Sequence record: CP053388.1
Direction: 5' to 3' (one strand)
Source of the DNA: Escherichia phage CMS-2020a
DNA length: 64,000 bases
This document shows, one piece after another, positions 5,489 to 20,997 of the stretch. Under the pieces are notes generated by a model. That model did no database searches, was not told the origin of the DNA, and saw nothing but the letters and a program-made list of their open reading frames with translations. The translations under genes and the position numbers were made by a program. The stretch's first letter is position 1, and each line of letters starts with the position of its first letter.

Positions 5489-5761
5489 TCAGGCTCCTTT
5501 TGTTTCGTTGATTCGTTTTAAAGCGGCGGATTCGTCGAATACAATCGCATCGTGGTTAAGGAGTCTGGATACACGAGCGAGGATTTTTACGACCTGCTCG
5601 CTGACTAATCCAAACTCGCGATCTGTCGCTTTCATTCCGGCAGCGCCTAGAATTGACGGCAGTGCGATGACAGCGTACTCACCGTGATAAAAGACAATCT
5701 CTTTTGCCAGTTGGGCAGGGGTGGTTGTAGCGCCATTAATAATCGATTTAAGCATTAGCAA
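5489..5761 (-). CDS. hypothetical protein (90 aa)
   Basis: ORF tightly packed between exonuclease and recombinase genes. Confidence 0.4.
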   Translation of the reverse strand: MLMLKSIINGATTTPAQLAKEIVFYHGEYAVIALPSILGAAGMKATDREFGLVSEQVVKILARVSRLLNHDAIVFDESAALKRINETKGA

Positions 5762-6699
5762 TACCTTTCGAATGGAAGAACAAACACTTCAAGGTCTTCA
5801 AGGAACGAACGGAAATTCAGCTCGTAGCACAGTTGCTCGAATGCTTTCACGTCACGATTGCCTTTGATTGTTTCGATTTCGGTAGGCGGAAACTTCGTCT
5901 CAATCAGGTTCATTAGCGTGATGTTTCTCTTGAACGCTTCGAGCATTCGACAGCCTGTTTTCTCGTTGAAGGCATTCTTCGCTAGTTTGTTGAAGGCGGT
6001 CTTATGGCGTCCTTTGTCAACCACGATTGAGCCGTCGTTGATACCGCGTACCATCGTTGCGACACTTCCCCATTCATGCAGCAGCTCTTTCGCACCGCCA
6101 GCACCAATGCCACCAACACCGCTAATGTTGTCCGATTTATCGCCTTGTAATGCTTTTGCTTCCAAAAATGCGCGAGGAGTAGCGAATCCTGTCAGTTCCG
6201 CAAATTGCTCAAAATTAACCTGCTTGTTTTTGGCGTCTTCGCGCAGGCTTACCCAGCTTACGTTTTCGCGAACTAACTGAAGCCAGTCGCTATCGCCTGT
6301 TAACAGATAGATGTGTTCAACGATTGGCTGCGGTGCAATGCTGGCTACCAGCAGCCCGGCCAGATCATCCGCTTCTGCATCTTTTGCAATGAGTTGGGTA
6401 ACTCCAAGCGCGGTCATCATTTTGAGGATGTATGGCTTCTGGATAGCAAAGCCTTCCTTCATCTTTTTCATATCAGGATCGTCGTCGCGATTTGCTTTGT
6501 AGTCCGGGTAAAAGTCGCGACGCTTGTCACTAAATCCATCCCAAAGAATCATAGGTCGGGCATGGAGGATGGAGGCATAACGACGGACGTTCTTAACAAA
6601 GCCGAAAGCAGCCTGTACTTCCATTTCGCCGTTGTGCAATTTGTCAGATTGTTGGTGGTAATAACCCAGGCTATTGCCATCTACGAAGAGATAATTCAC
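5755..6699 (-). CDS. 5'-3' exonuclease / flap endonuclease (FEN-like)
   Basis: N-terminal YLFVDGNSLGYY, helix-hairpin-helix GVGGIGAGGAKELL; start placed at in-frame GTG 6699 because terminator hairpin 6721-6742 lies inside the longer ORF to 6750. Confidence 0.75.
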   Translation of the reverse strand: MNYLFVDGNSLGYYHQQSDKLHNGEMEVQAAFGFVKNVRRYASILHARPMILWDGFSDKRRDFYPDYKANRDDDPDMKKMKEGFAIQKPYILKMMTALGVTQLIAKDAEADDLAGLLVASIAPQPIVEHIYLLTGDSDWLQLVRENVSWVSLREDAKNKQVNFEQFAELTGFATPRAFLEAKALQGDKSDNISGVGGIGAGGAKELLHEWGSVATMVRGINDGSIVVDKGRHKTAFNKLAKNAFNEKTGCRMLEAFKRNITLMNLIETKFPPTEIETIKGNRDVKAFEQLCYELNFRSFLEDLEVFVLPFERYC

Positions 6700-6714
6700 C
6701 GGTACATTCCTTCC

Positions 6715-6742
6715 AAAAAGTAAGGCGTCCGTAGACGCCTTA
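6715..6742 (-). terminator. intrinsic terminator TAAGGCGTC-CGTA-GACGCCTTA plus T-run
   Basis: hairpin and T-tract after SSB stop; same stem sequence family as terminators at 3250 and 4390. Confidence 0.55.
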
Positions 6743-6759
6743 CTGGTCACGTAATGGGA

Positions 6760-7788
6760 TTACAGAGAGTCCAGCTCTCTCAGTAGGTCATCCAGACCTT
6801 CATCTTCCGTCGCAGATGCGGCTGCTACAGATGTCGCTGCGACTGCTTCAGACTCTTTGACTGATACTGCAACGGCAGCGGGACTTGCTTCTGGTTTAAA
6901 TTCAGTTTCAACGGCACGGAGGATTTCTTCATCAACCAGACTGGTTGGTTCAGAAGCTGGGGTATGAGCGGTAGCTACAGCAGTCGCACCCTCCGTATGA
7001 CCAGTGACAGAGCCAAATCCAGGTAGTGCCGCAGCCGATGTTTTCGCGGTTGAGGAAATTGCTGGTGCAGATGCTGCGGCAGTTGGTGCAGCGATGCCAA
7101 TCAGACGACCCATAGTGCGAACTGTCGACAGAAGACGAGTTTCATCAGCCTGATTTGCGTATGCGATCAGATCATGCTGGGTATTCCAGAATTTATCTTC
7201 GATATCGCCTTTGTAGACTTTACGCTTAGGCGAGACGTCATATTTGGTATCGCGACCAGAGCCAGTACGTTTAATCAGGAATGCGTAGCCTTCCTCTTTG
7301 CTCAGTGGATTGCCGATATCATCAGCGATGTCTTCGGTGATTGCTTTGCAGATATCATCGAATACAGTAGACGGCAGCTCGATTAACTGGCATTTCTCAG
7401 CATCTGCGAAATCCTCACGAGCAGAAAGAATGCCGTTGACCAGGTAGCGAGGAGTGGCACGCATTTGACCGATGCGTTCTTCCATTGCTTTGTTACCCTT
7501 GTGACGAGCGCGACCTTCCATCACCATTTCGCATAGCTGACAAGCGCGACCGTGAGTATGTTGCTCACAAATATAAGCGTTGGTTGCTTCTTTACCTTCC
7601 TCGTTCTGATACTTAACGTAGTGCATACCGAAAGTCTGGAAGAACTTACCGTTTGGGTCGTCTTTATTCGGGAAGATGCGGATATAGTTGACGCCGTCTT
7701 TTAAGCGAGTCAGATCAACGTTGTTACCACGTTTGGCGGCAATGTCTTCACGAGTTTTGTTAAGCAAATCAAGTAATGTCTTAGACAT
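6760..7788 (-). CDS. ssDNA-binding protein, T4 gp32-like
   Basis: N-terminal YIRIFPNKDD resembling recalled gp32 motif, Cys/His zinc-site cluster CEQHTHGRACQLC, acidic C-terminal tail DEGLDDLLRELDSL. Confidence 0.65.
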   Translation of the reverse strand: MSKTLLDLLNKTREDIAAKRGNNVDLTRLKDGVNYIRIFPNKDDPNGKFFQTFGMHYVKYQNEEGKEATNAYICEQHTHGRACQLCEMVMEGRARHKGNKAMEERIGQMRATPRYLVNGILSAREDFADAEKCQLIELPSTVFDDICKAITEDIADDIGNPLSKEEGYAFLIKRTGSGRDTKYDVSPKRKVYKGDIEDKFWNTQHDLIAYANQADETRLLSTVRTMGRLIGIAAPTAAASAPAISSTAKTSAAALPGFGSVTGHTEGATAVATAHTPASEPTSLVDEEILRAVETEFKPEASPAAVAVSVKESEAVAATSVAAASATEDEGLDDLLRELDSL

Positions 7789-7905
7789 GTGTTTCTCCTT
7801 GTTGTGATTTGGCCGATGGCGCTATGCGCGTTGGGCTTTCGTTCATTCGTGGCTCTTTCGAGCTGTTAAATGATAGATCAGTACTTACTTATTATCTATC
7901 AAAAA

Positions 7906-8337
7906 TCAACGGGGAGTAATAAAGCGTTCAGAGCCTAATCGCTCTAATTCAACGATGGCCATCTTTGACGCCTGAACGATCATGTCTCGGCGATGCGAAA
8001 AGGCGGCGACAGCATGTTTGTATATGTCTGCGATGTGCCGTGCTTCATCCAACTTCTGCCGTTTAGACAGATACTGTGGGTTTGTTTTAACCTTAGCGTC
8101 CAGTACAGATTCGTTGAACTTAATGCCGTTCATACTCAAGTTCTTACGCTCTGTGTCGTATAGCTTTGCTTCAACAGCTTCAAGGTTAAGTTTTGCCTCT
8201 GCGACACTTCTTTCTGCATGAGCGAGTTTTGAGCCATACTCCATTAAAAGGCGGGGTTGTCTACGCCAGACTTCCTCCAGATTGTCTCGGTCAAACTCGA
8301 GATCAGACATTATTTTCTCGTAAATATCGGTGATCAT
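7906..8337 (-). CDS. hypothetical protein (143 aa), coiled-coil
   Basis: ORF between DnaE and SSB genes. Confidence 0.45.
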   Translation of the reverse strand: MITDIYEKIMSDLEFDRDNLEEVWRRQPRLLMEYGSKLAHAERSVAEAKLNLEAVEAKLYDTERKNLSMNGIKFNESVLDAKVKTNPQYLSKRQKLDEARHIADIYKHAVAAFSHRRDMIVQASKMAIVELERLGSERFITPR

Positions 8338-8431
8338 GTGCTTTCCTTTTTACTTATCATCTTATATTGATTATATCATTGTGATGATAAGGCAAGGAGT
8401 TCGAGGATAGGGGATATGAGGGGATAAGAGA

Positions 8432-8456
8432 AAACATGGCCATAGAGGCCATGTTT
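8432..8456 (-). terminator. hairpin AAACATGGCC-N5-GGCCATGTTT followed by T-rich tract
   Basis: 10-bp perfect stem directly after DnaE stop. Confidence 0.5.
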
Positions 8457-8462
8457 ATGGGA

Positions 8463-11400
8463 TCACGTCTTAATGGTTTCTGCTACGTCGGCTAATATCG
8501 CTTCTAGTCGTTCTCCCTCTTCAGGTCTGAAGTAAAGAATGTTGGGGTTAAACCCGTAAAAGACAGTAACGTCAAGGTCTGGAAGATACTCCTTCCTGCC
8601 GACCAAATCGGATGGCTTGTTTTTGTTGTTAAACAATGCCGTTGCCCGGCTACCACACGTCAGCACATAGGTCGGGCGCACCAGATTGATCTCTTCACGC
8701 ATAAAGTCGGTGAACTGGCCGATCTCGTCTTTGGTGTAGTCCTTTTCTTTGTCTTTCACCTTTTTGCAAACGCCTGTGACATAGAGATCGCCCATGCGCA
8801 AATCCCCAGCCGTCAACAGCTTGGCCTTAAAATCGTCGTATCCGTTCTCCATAAAGTAACCGGTTCGAGCATCATTGCCGTTCGCATTGTCCAGAATGAT
8901 CATGATTTTCGGCTTAATACCAATGCTGGGGCGGATTAGTTCATCACCTAAGCCCATTTCAGCCGCCATCCGCGTCATGAGTACGTTAATCTCAGCCGAA
9001 CGTTTGGGGTTCATCTCAAACGGACGTGAGGCTTTAACTGCGTCTATGACAAGGTCTCCCATCAATTCAGCCTGGTCGCGTAGGCGCTCTGGATCAGTTG
9101 CTGGCAGACTACCTGGCTCGATGGATGCAAACGCCCCTACTTTTTGCAGCGATTCGCGCACTCGACTATTACAGGCACGTTTCTCGACAGCTTCTTCGAA
9201 TTGCGCCAGTGACTCGAATTTGCCGCCAACTTTTTCTCGCGCTCTCATGATGGCTTGGCAGCCATTCTCAGAACACCCCTTCACAGCAGAGAAGGGCGCA
9301 TACAGCACCTGGCTGCCATCTTCAAGCGTGCGGATCTCGATTCGGTTAGATGACACGTTAACGTCTGGTGGCAATACGCGAATGCCATAGGTCAGCGCAT
9401 CCTTAACCAGCCCCTGGTGCTTATCCTCGCCCAGAATGGTGAGCGCAGCAGCGAAGAACTCAGCAGGGTAATGTGTCTTTAACCACATAGACTGATAGCT
9501 GATTAAAGAATAAGCAACACTGTGTGATTTGTTGAAGGCATATCCACCGAACTTCTCAAAGGCGTCCCATATTTCTTGGGCTTTTTCCTTACTGAGACCT
9601 TCCTGTTCAGAGACGATCTCCACGTAGTCTATGCCGTCACTAATAGCCTCGCTGTAGCTTCTACGCTTACCGTCTGAGCAATCCAGTTTTGCGTGTTTGT
9701 GAACCTCTACAGTACCTCCATTTTTGAGTGACAGTGTCACCCAGCCTGCTTGTGCTCGTTCTACAAAATCGCTGCCGATCGCTTTCATCTTATCCATGTT
9801 CTTTTTACCGATAGCGGAACGCAGAGCGTCTGCTTCGGCCATAGAGAACCCGGCAAGTACTCGGGAACTTTGCATGATTTGTTCCTGATAGAGCAAAACA
9901 CCATTAGTCTCCCGGGTGACTTCCTCAAGACGCGGATGAATTGAATGTGGAGCCATGAAGCCTTTGGCCACGGACACATAATCGTCCAACATGCCGGATT
10001 GAATCGGGCCAGGTCGGAAGAGCGCAGTCGTAGCAACAACCGTTTTAAAGCTCATTGGCTCAATTCCACCACCTAAATCTTTAAGCAGCTTGCGCATTGG
10101 GCCTGATTCAAGCTGGAAAACACCTTGAGTGTACCCAGCAGCAAAACCATCCAGCACCTTGCGATCTTCAAGAGAAATGGCATCAAGATTGATATCTTCA
10201 CCTGTGTTCTCTTTTATGTAGCGTTTTGCACTATCGAGCAAATCGAGAGTTGCCAGACCGAGTACGTCCAGCTTAATTAGGCCCATAGCCTCGCAGTAAC
10301 GCTTGTCAAATGCGATACAACGCGCGTCACCACGGCGTTCAACCGGTGTACGTTCTGTCAGAGGAACACCTGCTACGATCATCCCTGCCGCATGTCTACC
10401 AAAGCCACGCATAAGGCTTTGTAACTTGCAGGCTGCATTGAATGCATCAGGATATTTTGTTGCGTATTTGTCGAGACTTGCCAGTTGTTCGCGCAGCTCC
10501 TCCAATGGAAGGCTATCATCCTCGACGTTCTTCAGCTCTTTTGATACCGCCATATCTGCGGACTCCACACCATAAATACGAGCGGTATCACGTAGTGCAG
10601 AGGCTGCGCCCAGGTAGGTGAAGTTCGGAATGCCTGCAACGTAATCTTCGCCGTAGCGTTCATTCAGATACTCGATCACCTCATGGCGACGTGCCTGGCT
10701 GAAGTCCAAGTCCGCATCCGGCAAGTCGAGACGCTCAGGGTTGATGAAACGCTCAAACAGAAGACCGTGACGGATTGGGTCGACGTTGGTTATGCCTATG
10801 CACCACGCCACCAGAGAACCGGCAGAGGAACCACGACCAGGCCCAACGGGAATGCCAGTTTCACGACTATGATTCATCAGATCGCGCACCATCAGGAAGT
10901 AACCACAGAATCCCAGGCGAGTCAGCGTGTCCATTTCGTACTTTAGCCGCTCAACATAAACCCTGTTCTCAGAAGCAGGTGGTGTGTAGCCAAACTCTTT
11001 TGTGGTAAGACGTTTACGCAGCCCTGCAACAGCCAGTTTCATCAGCGTTGCAGGCTCGTCGTCTGCCATCTTTGGCAGTGCTGGCGGCAATTCATGCCAG
11101 CGCCATGTGCAGGCATCGATAATGGTATCCTGCGTTGTTGAGGCCATTGCAGCTGTTACCGGCACATCCATGCGAACGGAGAAGGCTTTAAGCGCCTCAA
11201 GGAGATGGCGGCGACCATTGACGGCGTTATCTCGCTGGTGGGGGATACGCAGACGATGCGGCTGGTCGATTTTTATGTTGTTCGTAACCATGTGCGCAAT
11301 GTCTTTAATGTCTGCATCGTCGATCGATTCGTAATAAGCGGGATAGAACGCCACTGGCTCTATTTTCAATGCGCTGGCGACTTTCATCGCCCGGACGTTA

Positions 11401-13480: not shown

Positions 13481-15589
13481 TCACTTTAAAATGATACGAG
13501 ATAGTTCAGTAACTACAGATGAACCAAGACTATCAACGCTCGTTACCAGGGCATGATTTGAGTAAAATCTCTCCGGTGCGTCAGTCATGATGCCAATTGC
13601 CATCAAATCAATATCAGTCTGCGTTTCAATTTGCTTCGCAACTGAACGCAAATGAGCGTCAAAACCTCTCCCAACAGCCCACGGCGCGCCATCACTCAGA
13701 ACAAGCATGATCTTCCTGTCCTCCAAGCGACCGGAAAATAACGATGCAAGGCTGGCTATGCTTTCACCATCCACGTTATTAAGAAGTGGGAATGTGTAGC
13801 CTACGCACCCCATACGTGAGCGAACTTCGCGAGAATTTACCTTTTCATTCCAATTTTTGATGATAGGTAGCATTAAAGATTCAAAGCGAGAGAACTCATA
13901 CTTGACAGCCTTAAGTTCTCCTGCCGCCATATGACTACCAAATGTAGTGAAGCCGGTGATAATGTTGGGAACATTTATTCGATCAAGGGCATCGGCGATG
14001 GTATATGCACTTGCAAGAGCCAATTGTATCGTTATACCACTCATTGAACCTGATAAATCAATCACTTGTTGAACACAGGCGTTAACGGCTTTAGATTCTT
14101 CTTTTTTACGAAACACGCGAGCATCATTCATTGCTAATCTGTAGATACTAGAACCATGAATGTGCCCCCGACGCTGGCCCGGTATAAACTGAACTCTGTT
14201 TCTGCTTGCTATTGCTCGCTCCAGGTCTTTTGCCAGCGTCGACGAAACACCTGACGAAAGATGCTTTTCAATATATTTGTCGAAGAGCTGGTTGCCTTCA
14301 GGAACGATGCGATAGCGGCTGATTGGATATCCTCCCAAATCAATATCGGAGAATGTTTTAATAAGCCGTTTGATATGGGCTTCTGCCTGATCAATCGAGC
14401 CGATGAAGTCGTATGAGCGATTGTATGGCCTGTATTCGCTTTTCGAGCTTTCTGTTAACTCGCTTTTAATCGTTTCGGATAGCGCATCTTCTGTCATGCC
14501 TCCGACTTCATCTTCCATGCTATCCAACTCCTCTAAAGCCTCTTCCAGACTCATTTTTGACGGAGTTGGGATATCTGAAGAGCCGTCTTCTGTCGTTTTT
14601 CTTTTTTCGTGGTCAGCGGTTAATGATTCTGACGCCGCGTTATCAGAAGCATCAGAATCTGATACCTCTTTATCATTTTCTGTATCATCGAATATTGTTT
14701 CTGATGATTCAGAATTATCTGAATCATCACTGTCGTTATTATCATGTTTGTGCTTACTATGTGATTCTGATTCGATAGATTTGTGATTATCTAACACTGA
14801 GGGTGTCTCATGATCTTCGTTGTCTTCACTGTTTTCTCCAGAGGCATCCGTCTGGTCAGCGTCTGAAGGATCGGAAGTTTTTCCCGGAGCTGACTCCTTA
14901 CCTTTGCTTTCACTTTCAGTGTCTTTGAGGATCTTAGCTATGGTCGCAGCCACCTTTACACAATCCTCGGTGCAAGACATGTTACGCACGGCCACATCGA
15001 TACCATGTTCTTTTAATAATGAAATTGGTTTCTCAATGACAGGCCAATATTCATCCATGAAATCTACGAACGGTGCTTGGCCATCCCAGGCTCTTACAAC
15101 CGGACAGAGAAAGAAGTTTAGAAAAAGCGCGCGCTGATCTTTGCCACAATAAGCAATAGCCTCTGAAGCCTTTGGTTTAAAGACTTTTTCGATTATAAGG
15201 CGCTGAGTTGCCATCAGATTACGTCTTGTTCCGTTAAAGACCTCACCCATTTTTCGCTCGATGAACACGTCTTCTAAGGCATTCCATAGCGACCAGGAAG
15301 GAACGCGTCCTTTTTCTCTCATTTTGTTGGACACACGAATATCGGTAAACAAAATGTGAGCAACTTCATGATCGAGAAATCCGCGCACAGCATTCATCAA
15401 TGCCGGTGTTGCGTTATCCGGGATTGATGGGATGTTTACGAGAATTGGATCTCCATCATCGTTATAGCGTACATAAGCGTCGTCCCCTCGTTCTGCAACA
15501 GGGATGTTTTTACCTGAAAGGAGAGCGACTACTCGTTTTACACTGTCACGGAAGTCCTGAACCTCTTTGATGGAACGTTTTTTAGACAT
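13481..15589 (-). CDS. von Willebrand factor A (VWA) domain protein, CobT-like, with long acidic Ser/Asp/Glu-rich linker
   Basis: C-terminal VWA/MIDAS-like segment DLSGSMSG; long acidic low-complexity region; partner of AAA+ ATPase. Confidence 0.6.
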   Translation of the reverse strand: MSKKRSIKEVQDFRDSVKRVVALLSGKNIPVAERGDDAYVRYNDDGDPILVNIPSIPDNATPALMNAVRGFLDHEVAHILFTDIRVSNKMREKGRVPSWSLWNALEDVFIERKMGEVFNGTRRNLMATQRLIIEKVFKPKASEAIAYCGKDQRALFLNFFLCPVVRAWDGQAPFVDFMDEYWPVIEKPISLLKEHGIDVAVRNMSCTEDCVKVAATIAKILKDTESESKGKESAPGKTSDPSDADQTDASGENSEDNEDHETPSVLDNHKSIESESHSKHKHDNNDSDDSDNSESSETIFDDTENDKEVSDSDASDNAASESLTADHEKRKTTEDGSSDIPTPSKMSLEEALEELDSMEDEVGGMTEDALSETIKSELTESSKSEYRPYNRSYDFIGSIDQAEAHIKRLIKTFSDIDLGGYPISRYRIVPEGNQLFDKYIEKHLSSGVSSTLAKDLERAIASRNRVQFIPGQRRGHIHGSSIYRLAMNDARVFRKKEESKAVNACVQQVIDLSGSMSGITIQLALASAYTIADALDRINVPNIITGFTTFGSHMAAGELKAVKYEFSRFESLMLPIIKNWNEKVNSREVRSRMGCVGYTFPLLNNVDGESIASLASLFSGRLEDRKIMLVLSDGAPWAVGRGFDAHLRSVAKQIETQTDIDLMAIGIMTDAPERFYSNHALVTSVDSLGSSVVTELSRIILK

Positions 15590-16151: not shown

Positions 16152-16538
16152 ATGTCTGACAACAAGATTGAATTTATAGAAAGTCGCTATGCTGCTTTTA
16201 TCGCAGGGCTGATTGAATCCTCACCTATGAGTCAGGCCCAAATAGCCAGACTTATTGGTTATAAAAATGCCAACAACCTTTCTTTAATTAAAAGTGGCAA
16301 AATTCCATTGCCTATCGATAAGGTTCGTCCGTTGGCGCTGGCGCTGGGTATTGAGCCAAGTCGTCTTATGATGATGGTGCTGGAAGAACGCCAACCTGAA
16401 CTCGCAGCATTTTTATACAAAGAAGGCACCGCTCCTCTTAACGAGGACGAAAAACAGGTTCTTGCTGCATATAACGAGCGATTCGGTAAAGAGAAAGGCG
16501 CATCACAAAAGGTTGTTGAGGCTATAAAGTCTCTATGA
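16152..16538 (+). CDS. XRE-family helix-turn-helix transcriptional regulator (candidate repressor)
   Basis: HTH segment SQAQIARLIGYKNANNLSLIKSGK; start placed at ATG 16152 with AAGG RBS (track ORF starts at GTG 16122). Confidence 0.65.
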   Translation: MSDNKIEFIESRYAAFIAGLIESSPMSQAQIARLIGYKNANNLSLIKSGKIPLPIDKVRPLALALGIEPSRLMMMVLEERQPELAAFLYKEGTAPLNEDEKQVLAAYNERFGKEKGASQKVVEAIKSL

Positions 16539-17636
16539 AAAATTTACACGAATAAGCTCTGTTGATAGACGATCTCCCTTGAATTTGTGGTCAATTTCGT
16601 CTAAATCCGGTTGCTCTACAATTGATGCGATGTACGTCGAGAAACTTTCTAAGGCGTCTCGCATCTCGTCCATATAATCGTGCCGGTCGTAGACTCGATC
16701 TATCCCCTCAAGACTGTGGTTCATGATTTTGCGTGATACCTCCTGGCTTATGCCTAATGCTGGGAAGTAACTACGCGCAGTACGGCGCAAGTCTCGGGGT
16801 GTAAATGGCTCAAGCTCCATCAGTTCTGGTCGTTCCAGAATACGACGTAATGCCTGGGCTATTGCCACTTTAGACATAGGAAGGTCTTTCCCGATTTTTT
16901 TATTCGAAGGCACGAGCCACTGGCTGCCTTTACCGTATTCGAACAACTCTTCAATACATGTGCGCATTAATGTGCTTAAAGGCAGCGAATGCTCACGGGC
17001 AGATTTGTTCCTCTTGCCTTGATTCCAAACCCCACGCTTAAGATTGAACTCACTTTTTTTAGCCCGCAGTACTTCGTCAGGTCGTCTTGCGGATACAAGA
17101 CACAGCCTGGCCGCCCATTTTGTACCAGCGCACACATTGAAGTAGTCCCATATATTCCAGAACACCCATACCTCTGCGTCGGTCAGCTTCCGCTCGCGAG
17201 GTGTGGGCTTTGCGCCACCGGCAACTTTGTTTAGTGACATATCGTTTAACGGTGACACGTCTATCATCCCCTGGAAGGCGCACCAGCTAAGGAACTGCTT
17301 CATCAGAGAGAAAACGCGGCGGCCCATAACAATTTTGCCATCCAGTATTAGTGGGTTGACCAGTTGGTTCACCATGAACCTATTAATGTCACTTACTTTT
17401 ACATCGGCAATGTGCGGCAAAACATGTATCAAAATACAATGAACAGCGATCTCTGGCCGACGTCTGGTTATCAGCAGAGATAAGCGAGTGAATAACATGA
17501 ATGCGTCCGAGAATCTCATGTCATTGCTGACCTGGGAGATCATAACGGCCTGCATTTGAGATGCTCTTTCGAGATACTCAATCGCCTCTTTTGAGGTGTT
17601 CTCCGCAGCGCGTGCTCTGTCAAAGCTATTTTTCAT
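16533..17636 (-). CDS. tyrosine site-specific recombinase (integrase/resolvase family)
   Basis: C-terminal R...H-x-x-R...Y pattern (RDLRRTARSYF, NHSLEGIDRVYDRHDY). Confidence 0.65.
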   Translation of the reverse strand: MKNSFDRARAAENTSKEAIEYLERASQMQAVMISQVSNDMRFSDAFMLFTRLSLLITRRRPEIAVHCILIHVLPHIADVKVSDINRFMVNQLVNPLILDGKIVMGRRVFSLMKQFLSWCAFQGMIDVSPLNDMSLNKVAGGAKPTPRERKLTDAEVWVFWNIWDYFNVCAGTKWAARLCLVSARRPDEVLRAKKSEFNLKRGVWNQGKRNKSAREHSLPLSTLMRTCIEELFEYGKGSQWLVPSNKKIGKDLPMSKVAIAQALRRILERPELMELEPFTPRDLRRTARSYFPALGISQEVSRKIMNHSLEGIDRVYDRHDYMDEMRDALESFSTYIASIVEQPDLDEIDHKFKGDRLSTELIRVNFS

Positions 17637-17809
17637 ATGACAATCACCGAGTTACGCCGATTCACTGTATAAGTAAACAGTATATTAGGCATAGATTCTT
17701 ATAGGATCAAGAGTAAAAGTAACTCATTTTCACTAATGATTCCATACATAGTAGGTATGGAATCATTTAAGGGAGGAATTTAAATTCTGAGGCGTTATTA
17801 ATATGATTG

Positions 17810-18220
17810 TTAAGGGTTAGTGAGAGCTTGAAATGCGGCCGCGTAGGCAGCGATATCGACCATAATTTTTGGATCTTTCGCGTACTGATGTGCGTTGTTA
17901 GGGAAGATTGCCAATAGGCTATACACATCTTGGAAATGTGCATGTTGACTGTAAACGAGTGCACGGTCGCTTGTGCAATTGAATCTGCTGCGGCTGCTGG
18001 TTCGTTCTTGCTTCGTGAACAAGAGATGAACGTGATAGACGCGGGAGGACACGATAGCACCAGGAGCCGTATACGGGCCATCTTTGCCGAATATGGCTGG
18101 GTACATGCCTTGTTTAAACGACTTGAAATCGTTGAGTAACGTAATCTCTAAGTCAGGCTTTATATCGAAGGTCGGCTTTAAAAATTGGGCGTAACTATCA
18201 CTGTTCCATGTGATCTTCAT
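17810..18220 (-). CDS. YafO-like toxin candidate
   Basis: motifs RVYHVHLL, FNCTSDRALVYSQHA, LLAIFPNNAH match my recollection of E. coli YafO; recall-based only. Confidence 0.45.
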   Translation of the reverse strand: MKITWNSDSYAQFLKPTFDIKPDLEITLLNDFKSFKQGMYPAIFGKDGPYTAPGAIVSSRVYHVHLLFTKQERTSSRSRFNCTSDRALVYSQHAHFQDVYSLLAIFPNNAHQYAKDPKIMVDIAAYAAAFQALTNP

Positions 18221-18229
18221 CGTTCAACC

Positions 18230-18838
18230 TCAATGGAATGAGAAGTTGGCGAAGACGTCCTCATCAATGAGGCCAGTCTGCGATTCGATGACGTCTACGT
18301 CGTTAAAACACTGATTTAAAATCAATAGCAGATCAGAGATAGCTAAACGATACTCAGTTACAGAATCGCTCAAGCGTTTCAAATATGGATGAGGTTGCTC
18401 AGAGTCGCGAATCAACTTGTTAACGAATCCCTCCAAACCACGAATGGTCAGGTCAACGTTCTTCAGTTCTTCGTAACGACTTTCACCGAAGTTGCTGCGA
18501 ATCTTTTCCGCTTTCCATCCAGAGATGGCATGGGCTAAGCGAACGTGTTTCGCCGTCAATTCTGCGAGCTTGCTTTCAATCTTTGCCAGCTGTGCCGCAT
18601 CGCGGTTTTCTTGAACAGGAATAGCCGCAGTGCTCACATAGGTTTGTGTTTTGAATCCTGTGAATTTCGCAGAGGGCTTCATCGTGCCACGGAAGCGTCG
18701 ATATCCACGCGGTTCAATAAAATCACGCCCAGATTTAGCTGTAGGCTTTGCGTTTGAAAAGCGTGAAGCGTTAGAGGTCACAGTAGCAAGGGCATTGCTA
18801 ATGACACTCATATCTTCTAGGCAATTTTCTAAACGCAT
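18230..18838 (-). CDS. hypothetical protein (202 aa), upstream partner of YafO-like gene
   Basis: ORF 9 bp upstream of toxin candidate on same strand. Confidence 0.45.
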   Translation of the reverse strand: MRLENCLEDMSVISNALATVTSNASRFSNAKPTAKSGRDFIEPRGYRRFRGTMKPSAKFTGFKTQTYVSTAAIPVQENRDAAQLAKIESKLAELTAKHVRLAHAISGWKAEKIRSNFGESRYEELKNVDLTIRGLEGFVNKLIRDSEQPHPYLKRLSDSVTEYRLAISDLLLILNQCFNDVDVIESQTGLIDEDVFANFSFH

Positions 18839-18933
18839 AAAACCTCTTAACTGCTCAATGGCTCGTAACTAAGTGTACGCTGTGCTGATGAAAGCTACAA
18901 ATAATAAATGGCCCCAAAAGGAGCCGTATTGTA

Positions 18934-19179
18934 TTACAGAGTGCTCGCAAAAGCAGCAAATTCTGTGTATCCGCCAATCGGCTGGCCATCGATCAGCACC
19001 TGGGGGATCGTCTCTACCGGTTTACCAACAATTTCGCTAAGTTTTTCCTTCTCGATACCGGCAGTGGTGATGTCGATGTACTCATAATCACCGTAGCCAT
19101 GTCCCTTTAGTTGCTTCGCCAGCTCGACCGCACGTTTGCAGTATGAGCAGTTATCTCGTCCGTAGATAGTGATCGTCAT
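18934..19179 (-). CDS. glutaredoxin / NrdH-like redoxin
   Basis: CSYC active-site motif near N-terminus, 81 aa thioredoxin-fold length. Confidence 0.8.
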   Translation of the reverse strand: MTITIYGRDNCSYCKRAVELAKQLKGHGYGDYEYIDITTAGIEKEKLSEIVGKPVETIPQVLIDGQPIGGYTEFAAFASTL

Positions 19180-19352: not shown

Positions 19353-20261
19353 ATGATTGGTAAGTTGTCTGATTCTTTGATTGAAAATAAATACAACGAA
19401 TTTAGAGAAGAAATATCTTTACTTTTTGACTATTTAAATCAGATAAATGATACAACAAAGAAAAATATAAAACGTCTTCTTAAAGAAGTGGAGTATGCAC
19501 AGAATCCAGATACTATTATTAATATTAATGAAACTATTAAGATTAAGTGTGGCACAACGTTAGCTCGCCATTTATGTTCAAACCCATATACAGGTTCAAC
19601 ATTAGAGATAGGTAACAGCGCCATTGATTTAGAAGAAAAGATAAGATTGTGTAATACTTTGAAAAATAAACAATATCAGTGGGTTATTACTGAAGCCTAT
19701 GAGTTACTGGAAGACTATATTGAGGCAATATATGTCTATACTGTATGTGTTCGAAATGATTTATGGTCCTCAAGTGATTTTGGTAAGGTTGAAGATGATG
19801 AAATTGGGAAAAGGGAAGTTTATTACAGATTATTAAAAGCAAAAAGTAACCCATCGAAAAAAATAACTAAAATTTTCAGAAATAAAATACCTGGTTTCAA
19901 AGAGATAGAAACAAACAACAAGATTGGCAAAAACTATCGCTTTAACATCAAGCTAATTGAACTACTAAGACATACAATAGTACACAATAGTGGACGATTC
20001 AATGATACAGAAAAATTTATAAATAAGGTTTTAGATGAATCTGAAATAAACGGTAAGAAAAGAGTTATTGGAGAAAGAGCTGTTAGAAGTTACATTACTA
20101 AAGTGCAAGAAGATGATATTGTGATGCTCTTAGAAAGACCATCTGAAATTTTAGGTTCTTTTGGTGGGTATTTTAACAGAGCAAAATTTTTACTAAGTGA
20201 TATTTTAGAATACTCACTAATCATTAAAGAAGAACTAAAATCATATCTAGGCAATCATTAA
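19353..20261 (+). CDS. AT-rich foreign gene; HEPN-motif protein, possible Abi-like abortive-infection/defence protein
   Basis: GC content visibly far below neighbours; own AT-rich upstream region and terminator; RHTIVH fits Rx4-6H HEPN motif. Confidence 0.5.
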   Translation: MIGKLSDSLIENKYNEFREEISLLFDYLNQINDTTKKNIKRLLKEVEYAQNPDTIININETIKIKCGTTLARHLCSNPYTGSTLEIGNSAIDLEEKIRLCNTLKNKQYQWVITEAYELLEDYIEAIYVYTVCVRNDLWSSSDFGKVEDDEIGKREVYYRLLKAKSNPSKKITKIFRNKIPGFKEIETNNKIGKNYRFNIKLIELLRHTIVHNSGRFNDTEKFINKVLDESEINGKKRVIGERAVRSYITKVQEDDIVMLLERPSEILGSFGGYFNRAKFLLSDILEYSLIIKEELKSYLGNH

Positions 20262-20439: not shown

Positions 20440-20526
20440 TGGCGGAGAGTAATGGAATCGAACCATCATCGCTTGCGCAATGGGACGGTTTTCAAGACCG
20501 CTTGAGCACCATGCTCCCTACTCTCC
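20440..20526 (-). tRNA. tRNA-Ser (anticodon TGA), type II with long variable arm
   Basis: hand-folded: acceptor GGAGAGT/ACTCTCC, anticodon loop CTTGAAA, T-loop TTCGATT, encoded CCA; D-arm somewhat atypical. Confidence 0.55.
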
Positions 20527-20750
20527 GGCCGTTGTGGTGGCCGGTACTGAATCTCCGGCATACGGTGCAGCCAATTAGGACTACGGACGATCACCGCTCG
20601 CGAAAGGGAAGATTTGCGGCCGCATTTCCCTAACACCCAAGAAAGCTATCGCATCAGTCTGCGAATCCACCACAACGGTAAGATCACTACCTTTCGACCA
20701 GTCATTGTGCACATGAACGACGATTAACCGTAATGATCTTATCGTTGTAT

Positions 20751-20826
20751 TGGTGCCGGTTAACGGACTCGAACCGCTGACATCCTGCTTACAAGGCAGG
20801 CGCTCTACCAACTGAGCTAAACCGGC
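20751..20826 (-). tRNA. tRNA-Thr (anticodon TGT)
   Basis: hand-folded cloverleaf: acceptor GCCGGTT/AACCGGC, D-stem GCTC/GAGC, anticodon loop CTTGTAA, T-loop TTCGAGT, CCA encoded. Confidence 0.8.
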
Positions 20827-20830
20827 AATT

Positions 20831-20917
20831 TGGTGGGGAGTGATGGAGTCGAACCACCCGAGTCGCCATGACAGTAGATTTACAGTCTACACCGCTACCT
20901 CTACGGACTAACTCCCC
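20831..20917 (-). tRNA. tRNA-Tyr (anticodon GTA), type II
   Basis: acceptor GGGGAGT/ACTCCCC, anticodon stem-loop GTAGA-CTGTAAA-TCTAC, long variable arm, T-loop TTCGACT, CCA encoded. Confidence 0.7.
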
Positions 20918-20922
20918 TAAAT

Positions 20923-20997
20923 TGGCGATGGTGGGTGGATTCGAACCACCGACCAGTTGGTTAACAGCCAACTGCTCTACCGCTGAGCTACACCATC
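20923..20997 (-). tRNA. tRNA-Asn (anticodon GTT)
   Basis: clean cloverleaf: acceptor GATGGTG/CACCATC, D-stem GCTC/GAGC, anticodon loop CTGTTAA, T-arm GGTGG-TTCGAAT-CCACC, CCA encoded. Confidence 0.85.

Follow-up and report, generated by a model that had tools for sequence, protein, structure and literature searches.

The window analysed here is a stretch of 64,000 nt from Escherichia phage CMS-2020a (AC No. CP053388.1). Coded on its minus strand are two genes whose best reading is a type II-like toxin-antitoxin (TA) module, in which the toxin is of a known family and the antitoxin of one not yet recognised. The downstream gene codes for a YafO-family toxin. The upstream gene, below called the partner, codes for a protein of a small uncharacterised family; judged from sequence comparison, this protein is most likely an antitoxin of a new type. 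The pair is exchangeable cargo of phage-plasmids, and it is rather probable that it is a bicistronic TA cassette with its own promoter and that it has an addiction role.

The layout is that of type II TA systems, with two small adjacent and co-oriented genes, the gene in the antitoxin position first, and a 9-nt junction. Both genes are in the same reading frame:

17810..18220, minus strand: toxin gene, 136-aa YafO-family protein with predicted RelE/HigB-like fold

18230..18838, minus strand: partner gene, 202-aa putative antitoxin of the uncharacterised family phrog_13546

The toxin half is already annotated and the novelty is in the partner family only. The identical toxin protein is found in NCBI on 160 contigs as 'toxin YafO' or 'type II toxin-antitoxin system YafO family toxin'. 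In annotation pipelines, only the toxin receives a name; the partner is called 'hypothetical protein', as are all named database copies of it.

Toxin gene

The original prediction had recognised the 136-aa product as YafO-like by the motifs RVYHVHLL, FNCTSDRALVYSQHA, and LLAIFPNNAH. All three occur in the product and can be aligned with the sequence of E. coli K-12 YafO. A profile search, proposed at the same time as a check, gave a significant YafO-family match, so an outcome with no YafO hit has fallen away. The match to Pfam PF13957 (YafO_toxin) has 78.2 bits against a gathering cut-off of 25 bits (E = 5.4e-22, profile positions 2-100 of 101), which is far above chance. In BLASTP, the toxin is 36% identical to K-12 YafO over 110 aa (E = 7e-14). 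On the NCBIfam model NF007377, the E. coli YafO equivalog, it reached 58.5 bits and is below the cut-off of 153. A score so far under the equivalog cut-off marks the toxin, at the level of profiles, as a member of the YafO family and not as an orthologue or equivalog of K-12 YafO.

Two clades were found in a search of the YafO family. The E. coli-type proteins are 131-134 aa long and ~35% identical to the window toxin. Members of the clade of the window toxin are 136-145 aa long and mostly at least 47% identical to it, with a 145-aa outlier (P0108) at 34%; they have an N-terminal TWNSDSY extension and are without the TWPL insertion. Eight residues are invariant in 29 sequences of both clades (H63, H65, T83, L88, Y90, L102, H111, and A127), and all of them, the three histidines included, are kept in the window toxin. 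The AlphaFold2 model is confident, with a predicted local distance difference test (pLDDT) score of 92.7, and has a RelE/HigB-type alpha/beta fold, RelE-like folding having been reported for YafO on the ground of weak homology; invariant residues and fold thus agree with the assignment to YafO. No meaningful match was obtained when PDB was searched by sequence with the toxin family, and there is no solved YafO structure. The toxin is basic (isoelectric point, pI, ~9) and under strong purifying selection, with a ratio of nonsynonymous to synonymous substitution rates (dN/dS) of 0.08-0.18. That E. coli YafO is an endoribonuclease toxin has been established by experiment; its dependence on the ribosome is disputed (PMC8546651).

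Linkage of toxin and partner across genomes

For the linkage survey, the toxin and the open reading frame (ORF) ending just upstream were extracted from every fetched locus. Loci L044 and L052 were left out of the count (contig-cut partner fragment only, or truncated toxin). All 46 loci counted with the YafO clade of the window have a partner homologue of 173-205 aa situated 8-12 nt upstream of the toxin, mostly exactly 9 nt. The loci cover phage-plasmids and five chromosomal lineages; among them are phage-plasmids of E. coli, Kluyvera, and Klebsiella, chromosomes of Erwinia, Brenneria, Enterobacter, and Pluralibacter, genome contigs of Samsonia and Pectobacterium, and two metagenomic lineages. 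In one of the metagenomic lineages, the toxin has 145 aa and is only 34% identical to that of the window, and its 193-aa partner still keeps RGLEG and the F....FH terminus. The pairing with a gene in the antitoxin position, as originally predicted, was therefore seen at fixed spacing in every locus examined and in unrelated contexts.

The flanks of the chromosomal copies are mutually unrelated, and only the two genes and ~100 nt upstream are shared. An HNH gene, insertion sequence fragments, a HigBA-like pair, and prophage tail genes surround these copies, which are thus located in mobile or variable regions. The terminator-like hairpin described below and recognisable remnants of the glutaredoxin 3' end are kept upstream of the partner in the chromosomal copies of Enterobacter (L036 3240-3400) and Pluralibacter (L039 3325-3483). 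Their retention suggests, on sequence grounds, a transfer from phage-plasmid to chromosome, with both copies derived from the phage-plasmid cassette.

Across 528 pairs, the pairwise identities of partner and toxin are correlated (r = 0.97), with faster divergence of the partner (mean identity 65% vs 72% for the toxin). Viral contig IMGVR_UViG_3300045988_161936 (L031 4001-4606) still codes for an intact partner of 201 aa but has lost the toxin gene, whose place is taken by an ORF of 57 aa and an unrelated one of 300 aa; the partner is here an orphan antitoxin-like gene. The copy on the K. variicola plasmid p_AC125 (77 kb, L057 3000-4020) was considered as a distant homologue (36% identity) and rejected: both genes are frameshifted there and have decayed together. 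This plasmid is a shortened derivative, which also carries an AbiH-family gene.

In PLSDB at a threshold of at least 60% identity, the partner is on 316 plasmids and the toxin on 313, with no excess of lone toxins, and 273 of the 316 partner-bearing plasmids are from Klebsiella. The toxin clade is on 313-317 PLSDB plasmids, mostly elements of 107-112 kb from clinical Klebsiella pneumoniae. The partner is on ~40% of the 786 plasmids with this type of integrase (at least 80% identity). Among species-representative genomes, the toxin clade is much rarer, as a narrow YafO alignment scan found it in only 5 of 185,579.

The inheritance is also that of type II TA systems: the pair moves as a unit, the toxin is not found alone, and an orphan partner is tolerated. 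Because the partner is upstream, apparently co-transcribed, and faster-evolving than the toxin, accompanies the toxin wherever it occurs, and is lost no earlier than the toxin, this linkage is the signature that comparative sequence analysis gives for a cognate antitoxin.

Partner gene

The gene and its spacing of 9 bp are as predicted earlier, and the description of the product as atypically large and unrecognised also stands: it does not resemble YafN, and its family is without annotation. Nothing in Pfam, NCBIfam, or PADLOC matched the 202-aa protein, so neither the profile search for antitoxin families that had been suggested nor any YafN, ribbon-helix-helix (RHH), or helix-turn-helix (HTH) profile recognised it. 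The single match, with E = 9e-125, is to phrog_13546, a family of unknown function. A sequence search of PDB with the partner family gave no meaningful match. The family is small, with 27 clusters among 5.8 billion proteins, all from Enterobacterales; an exhaustive profile search of 1.84 billion proteins yielded 11 representatives. With dN/dS of 0.17-0.19 overall and with length differences among homologues that preserve the frame, the partner gene is real and subject to purifying selection.

The anatomy of the partner was read from the alignment of homologues and from an AlphaFold2 monomer model:

Residues ~6-28: N-terminal helix, conserved, with 61% mean identity across eight lineages

Residues ~29-80: linker, disordered, basic, and of variable length, with 17% identity and dN/dS of 0.34-0.61

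Residues ~75-178: three-helix bundle, pLDDT ~80, with conserved RGLEG and TEYR.A.SDLLMIL.QCF motifs

Residues 181-202 (codons 18230..18295, minus strand): C-terminal tail VDVIESQTGLIDEDVFANFSFH, acidic and aromatic (...DEDVFANFSFH)

The linker is mostly missing from partner homologues of 162-174 aa. With pLDDT below 50, the tail is modelled as disordered in the monomer, but its conservation equals that of the folded parts. It is kept as F.NF.FH in the most distant homologues, with dN/dS of 0.04-0.14, and its net charge of -5 is opposite to that of the basic toxin. Since it is disordered when alone, strongly conserved, opposite in charge to the toxin, and terminal, the tail would be the likeliest neutralising element of the modelled protein. 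The same pattern is known from the segments with which antitoxins of Phd/YefM, RelB, and HigA2 type wrap around their RelE-fold toxins. The N-terminal helix and the bundle could possibly serve in oligomerisation, regulation, sensing, or a second contact with the toxin.

The partner was also tried as a homologue of YafN, and this was rejected. There was no BLASTP alignment, the hhalign probability against a five-sequence YafN profile was 0.6%, and PF02604 was not matched. YafN orthologues conserve the terminus S-D-x-D-[LF]-x-[DE]-F-x-E, and the tails of partner and YafN look alike by eye, both with an acidic run followed by F-x-x-F.

The E. coli-type yafO genes are preceded by a Phd/YefM-type YafN of 95-122 aa, overlapping or 2 nt away. 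As a separate observation, only short ORFs precede yafO (a called gene of 44 aa; 28 aa by script) in the E. coli-type dinB-yafNOP locus of chromosome GCA_046507415.1 (L045 2867-3432). The YafO ORF has 143 aa there and is fused into downstream sequence, and the module appears to be a decaying classical yafNO.

Expression signals and junction

The following signals were read around the pair:

18221..18232, minus strand: junction, in which the partner stop codon TGA (18232-18230) overlaps the toxin Shine-Dalgarno sequence GAGG (18231-18228)

18848-18843, minus strand: ribosome-binding site of the partner, AAGAGG

18872..18900, minus strand: promoter-like element TTGTAG-N17-TACACT, read from the sequence upstream of the ribosome-binding site of the partner

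18910..18925, minus strand: terminator-like hairpin GGCTCCTTTTGGGGCC followed by a T-rich run, located after the glutaredoxin gene

At the junction, a spacer of 9 nt precedes the toxin ATG. The partner stop codon is followed by GG in 11 of 11 lineages compared, which gives T(A/G)AGG before the toxin start, with a gap of 8-12 nt. Such conservation in every lineage compared fits translational coupling of partner and toxin. The promoter-like element is under the threshold of the consensus scan, and it is kept as TTGT(A/C)GC...TACACT on the phage-plasmids of E. coli and Klebsiella and at the chromosomal loci of Enterobacter and Erwinia. The hairpin is also kept at the chromosomal Enterobacter locus, and as a putative terminator it would insulate the cassette from the glutaredoxin gene. 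Within the cassette, no RNA antitoxin was recognised (no Rfam match below E = 0.3), and there are no tandem repeats and no repeat array.

Host element and cargo slot

The flanks of the window are 93-97% identical to three Escherichia phages of ~108 kb (Cyrano, CMS-2020a, and PhiR41_1); their identity to Klebsiella phage-plasmids, pJN2-26 among them, is ~75%. By this identity, the window is assigned to the SSU5/pHCM2-like phage-plasmids. The pair is in a slot between an integrase and a glutaredoxin gene:

16533-17636: integrase gene, one border of the cargo slot

17735..17767: near-perfect 16-nt inverted repeat, AATGATTCCATACATA / TAGGTATGGAATCATT, with 1 nt between the arms, at the integrase-side border of the slot

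17768..18960, minus strand: exchangeable cassette according to alignment with Cyrano, borders approximate

18934-19179: glutaredoxin gene, the other border of the slot

In the alignment with Cyrano, homology breaks off within the last ~20 codons of the glutaredoxin gene and restarts exactly at the inverted repeat. The repeat is ~100 nt upstream of the integrase start, and it could be the own site of the recombinase, for multimer resolution or cassette exchange, or an operator.

The slot of Cyrano (locus coordinates 6038-7043) contains an unrelated gene on the opposite strand; its 184-aa product has no assigned function and no Pfam match. In PhiR41_1, the slot (locus coordinates 5534-9164) is occupied by a GadW-like regulator together with a large ORF, and Klebsiella phage pJN2-26, a more distant relative, has the same YafO pair. 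With contents that differ in this way among close relatives, the slot is, in genome comparison, a cargo hotspot of SSU5-like phage-plasmids, and the YafO pair is its exchangeable cargo. A locus encoding an identical 202-aa partner is also on the E. coli plasmid pEcoFMU073332c, where the RefSeq order is GrxA glutaredoxin, 'hypothetical protein', 'type II toxin-antitoxin system YafO family toxin', and site-specific integrase.

Proposed mechanism and alternative explanations

The comparisons above show the family and predicted fold of the toxin, that the partner gene is real and constrained, that the two genes strictly co-occur and co-diverge, and that the cassette is mobile. We infer from them the toxicity of the YafO protein, its neutralisation by the partner, the binding segment, and the biological role. 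The downstream gene would be translated into a RelE-fold endoribonuclease of the YafO family that cuts mRNA and arrests translation. The partner would neutralise this toxin through direct binding, with the acidic aromatic C-terminal tail as the probable binding segment, possibly helped by the N-terminal helix. The helical bundle may serve in oligomerisation, regulation, or both. The pair would be transcribed from its own promoter, with translation of the two genes coupled. SSU5-like elements are low-copy plasmid prophages, and the module would most plausibly have a role in addiction (post-segregational killing) like phd-doc on P1, with an extra anti-phage role possible. By analogy, a TA cassette beside a tyrosine recombinase and an inverted repeat would fit a stability region.

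Several observations weigh against a TA cassette of this kind. Structure searches with the partner found only generic helical bundles and no informative neighbour. The whole partner is not acidic in the window (pI 8.5), while it is acidic in other lineages. No DNA-binding domain (HTH, RHH, AbrB, or Phd) was recognised in the partner by Pfam or in the model, and the search for an operator around the promoter-like element found only weak, imperfect symmetry and no clear repeat. Classical autoregulation by the partner is thus unsupported, the predicted protein being without a recognisable DNA-binding domain. Some genuine antitoxins have no such domain. The likeness of the partner tail to that of YafN is unproven: because profile-profile comparison finds no relationship between the two proteins (hhalign 0.6%), it is a likeness of motifs without statistical support, possibly convergent, and is kept as a hypothesis only. 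Finally, strict co-occurrence would also be expected if the pair were a defence system of two genes, with the partner as sensor or regulator.

Such a defence system is the strongest alternative, although an unlikely one. The pair would then be primarily an abortive-infection or anti-phage module, whose long partner, as a sensor or regulator, frees the YafO nuclease when a competing phage infects. The situation of the cassette in a hotspot with contents differing between close relatives, the mobile or variable surroundings of the chromosomal copies, and the size of the partner, about twice that of YafN and with extra conserved modules, all agree with it. The hotspot and these surroundings would fit abortive infection or competition between elements as well as they fit addiction. 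Moreover, phage-plasmids of the SSU5 group are known to carry various defence systems (10.1101/2025.09.12.675607). However, PADLOC-DB 2.0 gave only noise for the toxin (PDC-M55B, E = 0.015) and nothing for the partner, and profile and structure searches recognised no sensor-type domain in the partner. Addiction modules are classical on low-copy plasmid prophages. As the defence mechanism overlaps with that of a TA module, it is not exclusive of it; addiction is ranked first and defence is taken as a non-exclusive rival. A more specific proposal, which we hold as speculative and improbable, is that the partner is a modular antitoxin. Its short acidic F-x-N-F-S-F-H tail, convergent with D-x-D-[FL]-x-[DE]-F-x-E of YafN, would plug YafO, and release of the tail would be controlled by the helix and bundle in response to a signal, for instance a phage protein or the loss of the plasmid. 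The pair would then be an uncatalogued system of abortive infection or competition.

Still less probable is that the 202-aa protein is a co-transcribed accessory and not the neutraliser, with the toxin curbed by a chromosomal YafN of the host, by a small RNA, or by low expression. The partner is indeed unlike any known antitoxin family and without a DNA-binding domain. Against this, nothing in the cassette but the two genes is conserved across unrelated chromosomal contexts, and the toxin was never without the partner in the fetched loci. A compatible YafN cannot be assumed for all hosts (Brenneria, Erwinia, Pectobacterium), and the clade of the window toxin is only ~35% identical to the clade that is paired with YafN. 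An RNA antitoxin is disfavoured by the missing Rfam match and repeat array within the cassette. The least probable explanation, an inactive or repurposed RelE-fold protein forming a non-toxic complex with another role in the life cycle of the phage-plasmid, could draw on the equivalog score (58.5 bits vs 153) and on the debate about the mode of action of YafO itself (PMC8546651), but every residue invariant across both YafO clades is kept, the three histidines included, the toxin is under strong purifying selection (dN/dS 0.08-0.18), and the behaviour as a mobile two-gene cassette is typical of TA modules.

Comparison with known systems

The reading as a TA module with a new antitoxin family was compared with known systems. 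The closest is YafN-YafO of E. coli, a type II TA system of the dinB-yafNOP operon. The toxins share PF13957, 36% identity, and the same invariant residues, and in both systems the partner is upstream of the toxin with very short spacing. In contrast to the 202-aa partner, which is all-helical in the model, YafN has 97 aa, is of Phd/YefM type, and is unrelated. The window toxin is in a separate clade and under the equivalog cut-off, and its pair is in the cargo slot of a phage-plasmid, whereas yafNO is in the SOS-regulated dinB operon. Interferases of RelE/HigB type (V. cholerae HigB2, M. tuberculosis HigB1, YafQ, and YoeB) are only 6-18% identical to the toxin, and the partner resembles none of HigA, DinJ, and YefM. 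The phd-doc module, as known from P1, is analogous as a two-gene cassette on a low-copy plasmid prophage, presumed to act by post-segregational killing, but both the toxin family (Fic/Doc vs YafO/RelE fold) and the antitoxin family are unrelated.

In the survey of Leplae et al. 2011, the YafO super-family was small (n = 25) and paired with Phd-type or unclassified 'guilt-by-association' antitoxins, and no YafO was found on plasmids or phages at that time (PMC3141249). The partner family of the window is neither named nor characterised there, and those unclassified partners could be members of it. There is no YafO entry in the NetFlax supplementary tables. In genome papers, YafO genes possibly of this clade are described as a lone or 'computationally predicted' toxin or as an 'incomplete' TA system (PMC8151138, PMC6192338).

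Recognition of the partner family would correct annotations of orphan toxins and 'incomplete' TA systems, and the YafO clade of the window is present on hundreds of sequenced phage-plasmids. For SSU5-like phage-plasmids, the family is a candidate determinant of stability or addiction. If the reading is true, one toxin family has two unrelated antitoxin architectures, YafN and the partner family, which would offer a natural comparison of YafO inhibition. The conceptual advance is modest, as new antitoxin families for known toxins turn up regularly.

Other genes in the window

Between the glutaredoxin gene and a tRNA cluster, an ORF of 302 aa (19353-20261, plus strand) is an uncharacterised accessory gene. 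Its sole match is phrog_35492 (function unknown, E = 3e-211), and it has no match in Pfam, NCBIfam, or PADLOC. At the corresponding position, pJN2-26 has a gene of 915 nt, the likeness being in size and position alone. The tRNA cluster (20440-20997, minus strand) consists of four genes, Ser-TGA, Thr-TGT, Tyr-GTA, and Asn-GTT. Only the tRNAs for Ser, Thr, and Asn are annotated at the corresponding place in the Cyrano record, and the window may have an extra tRNA-Tyr. A CobT-like protein of 702 aa is coded at 13481-15589 (minus strand) and has a long, acidic, Ser/Asp-rich insert of low complexity at approximately residues 225-350. It matches phrog_1576 (function unknown), and its relatives are named inconsistently, as 'dimethylbenzimidazole phosphoribosyltransferase' or 'porphyrin biosynthetic protein'.

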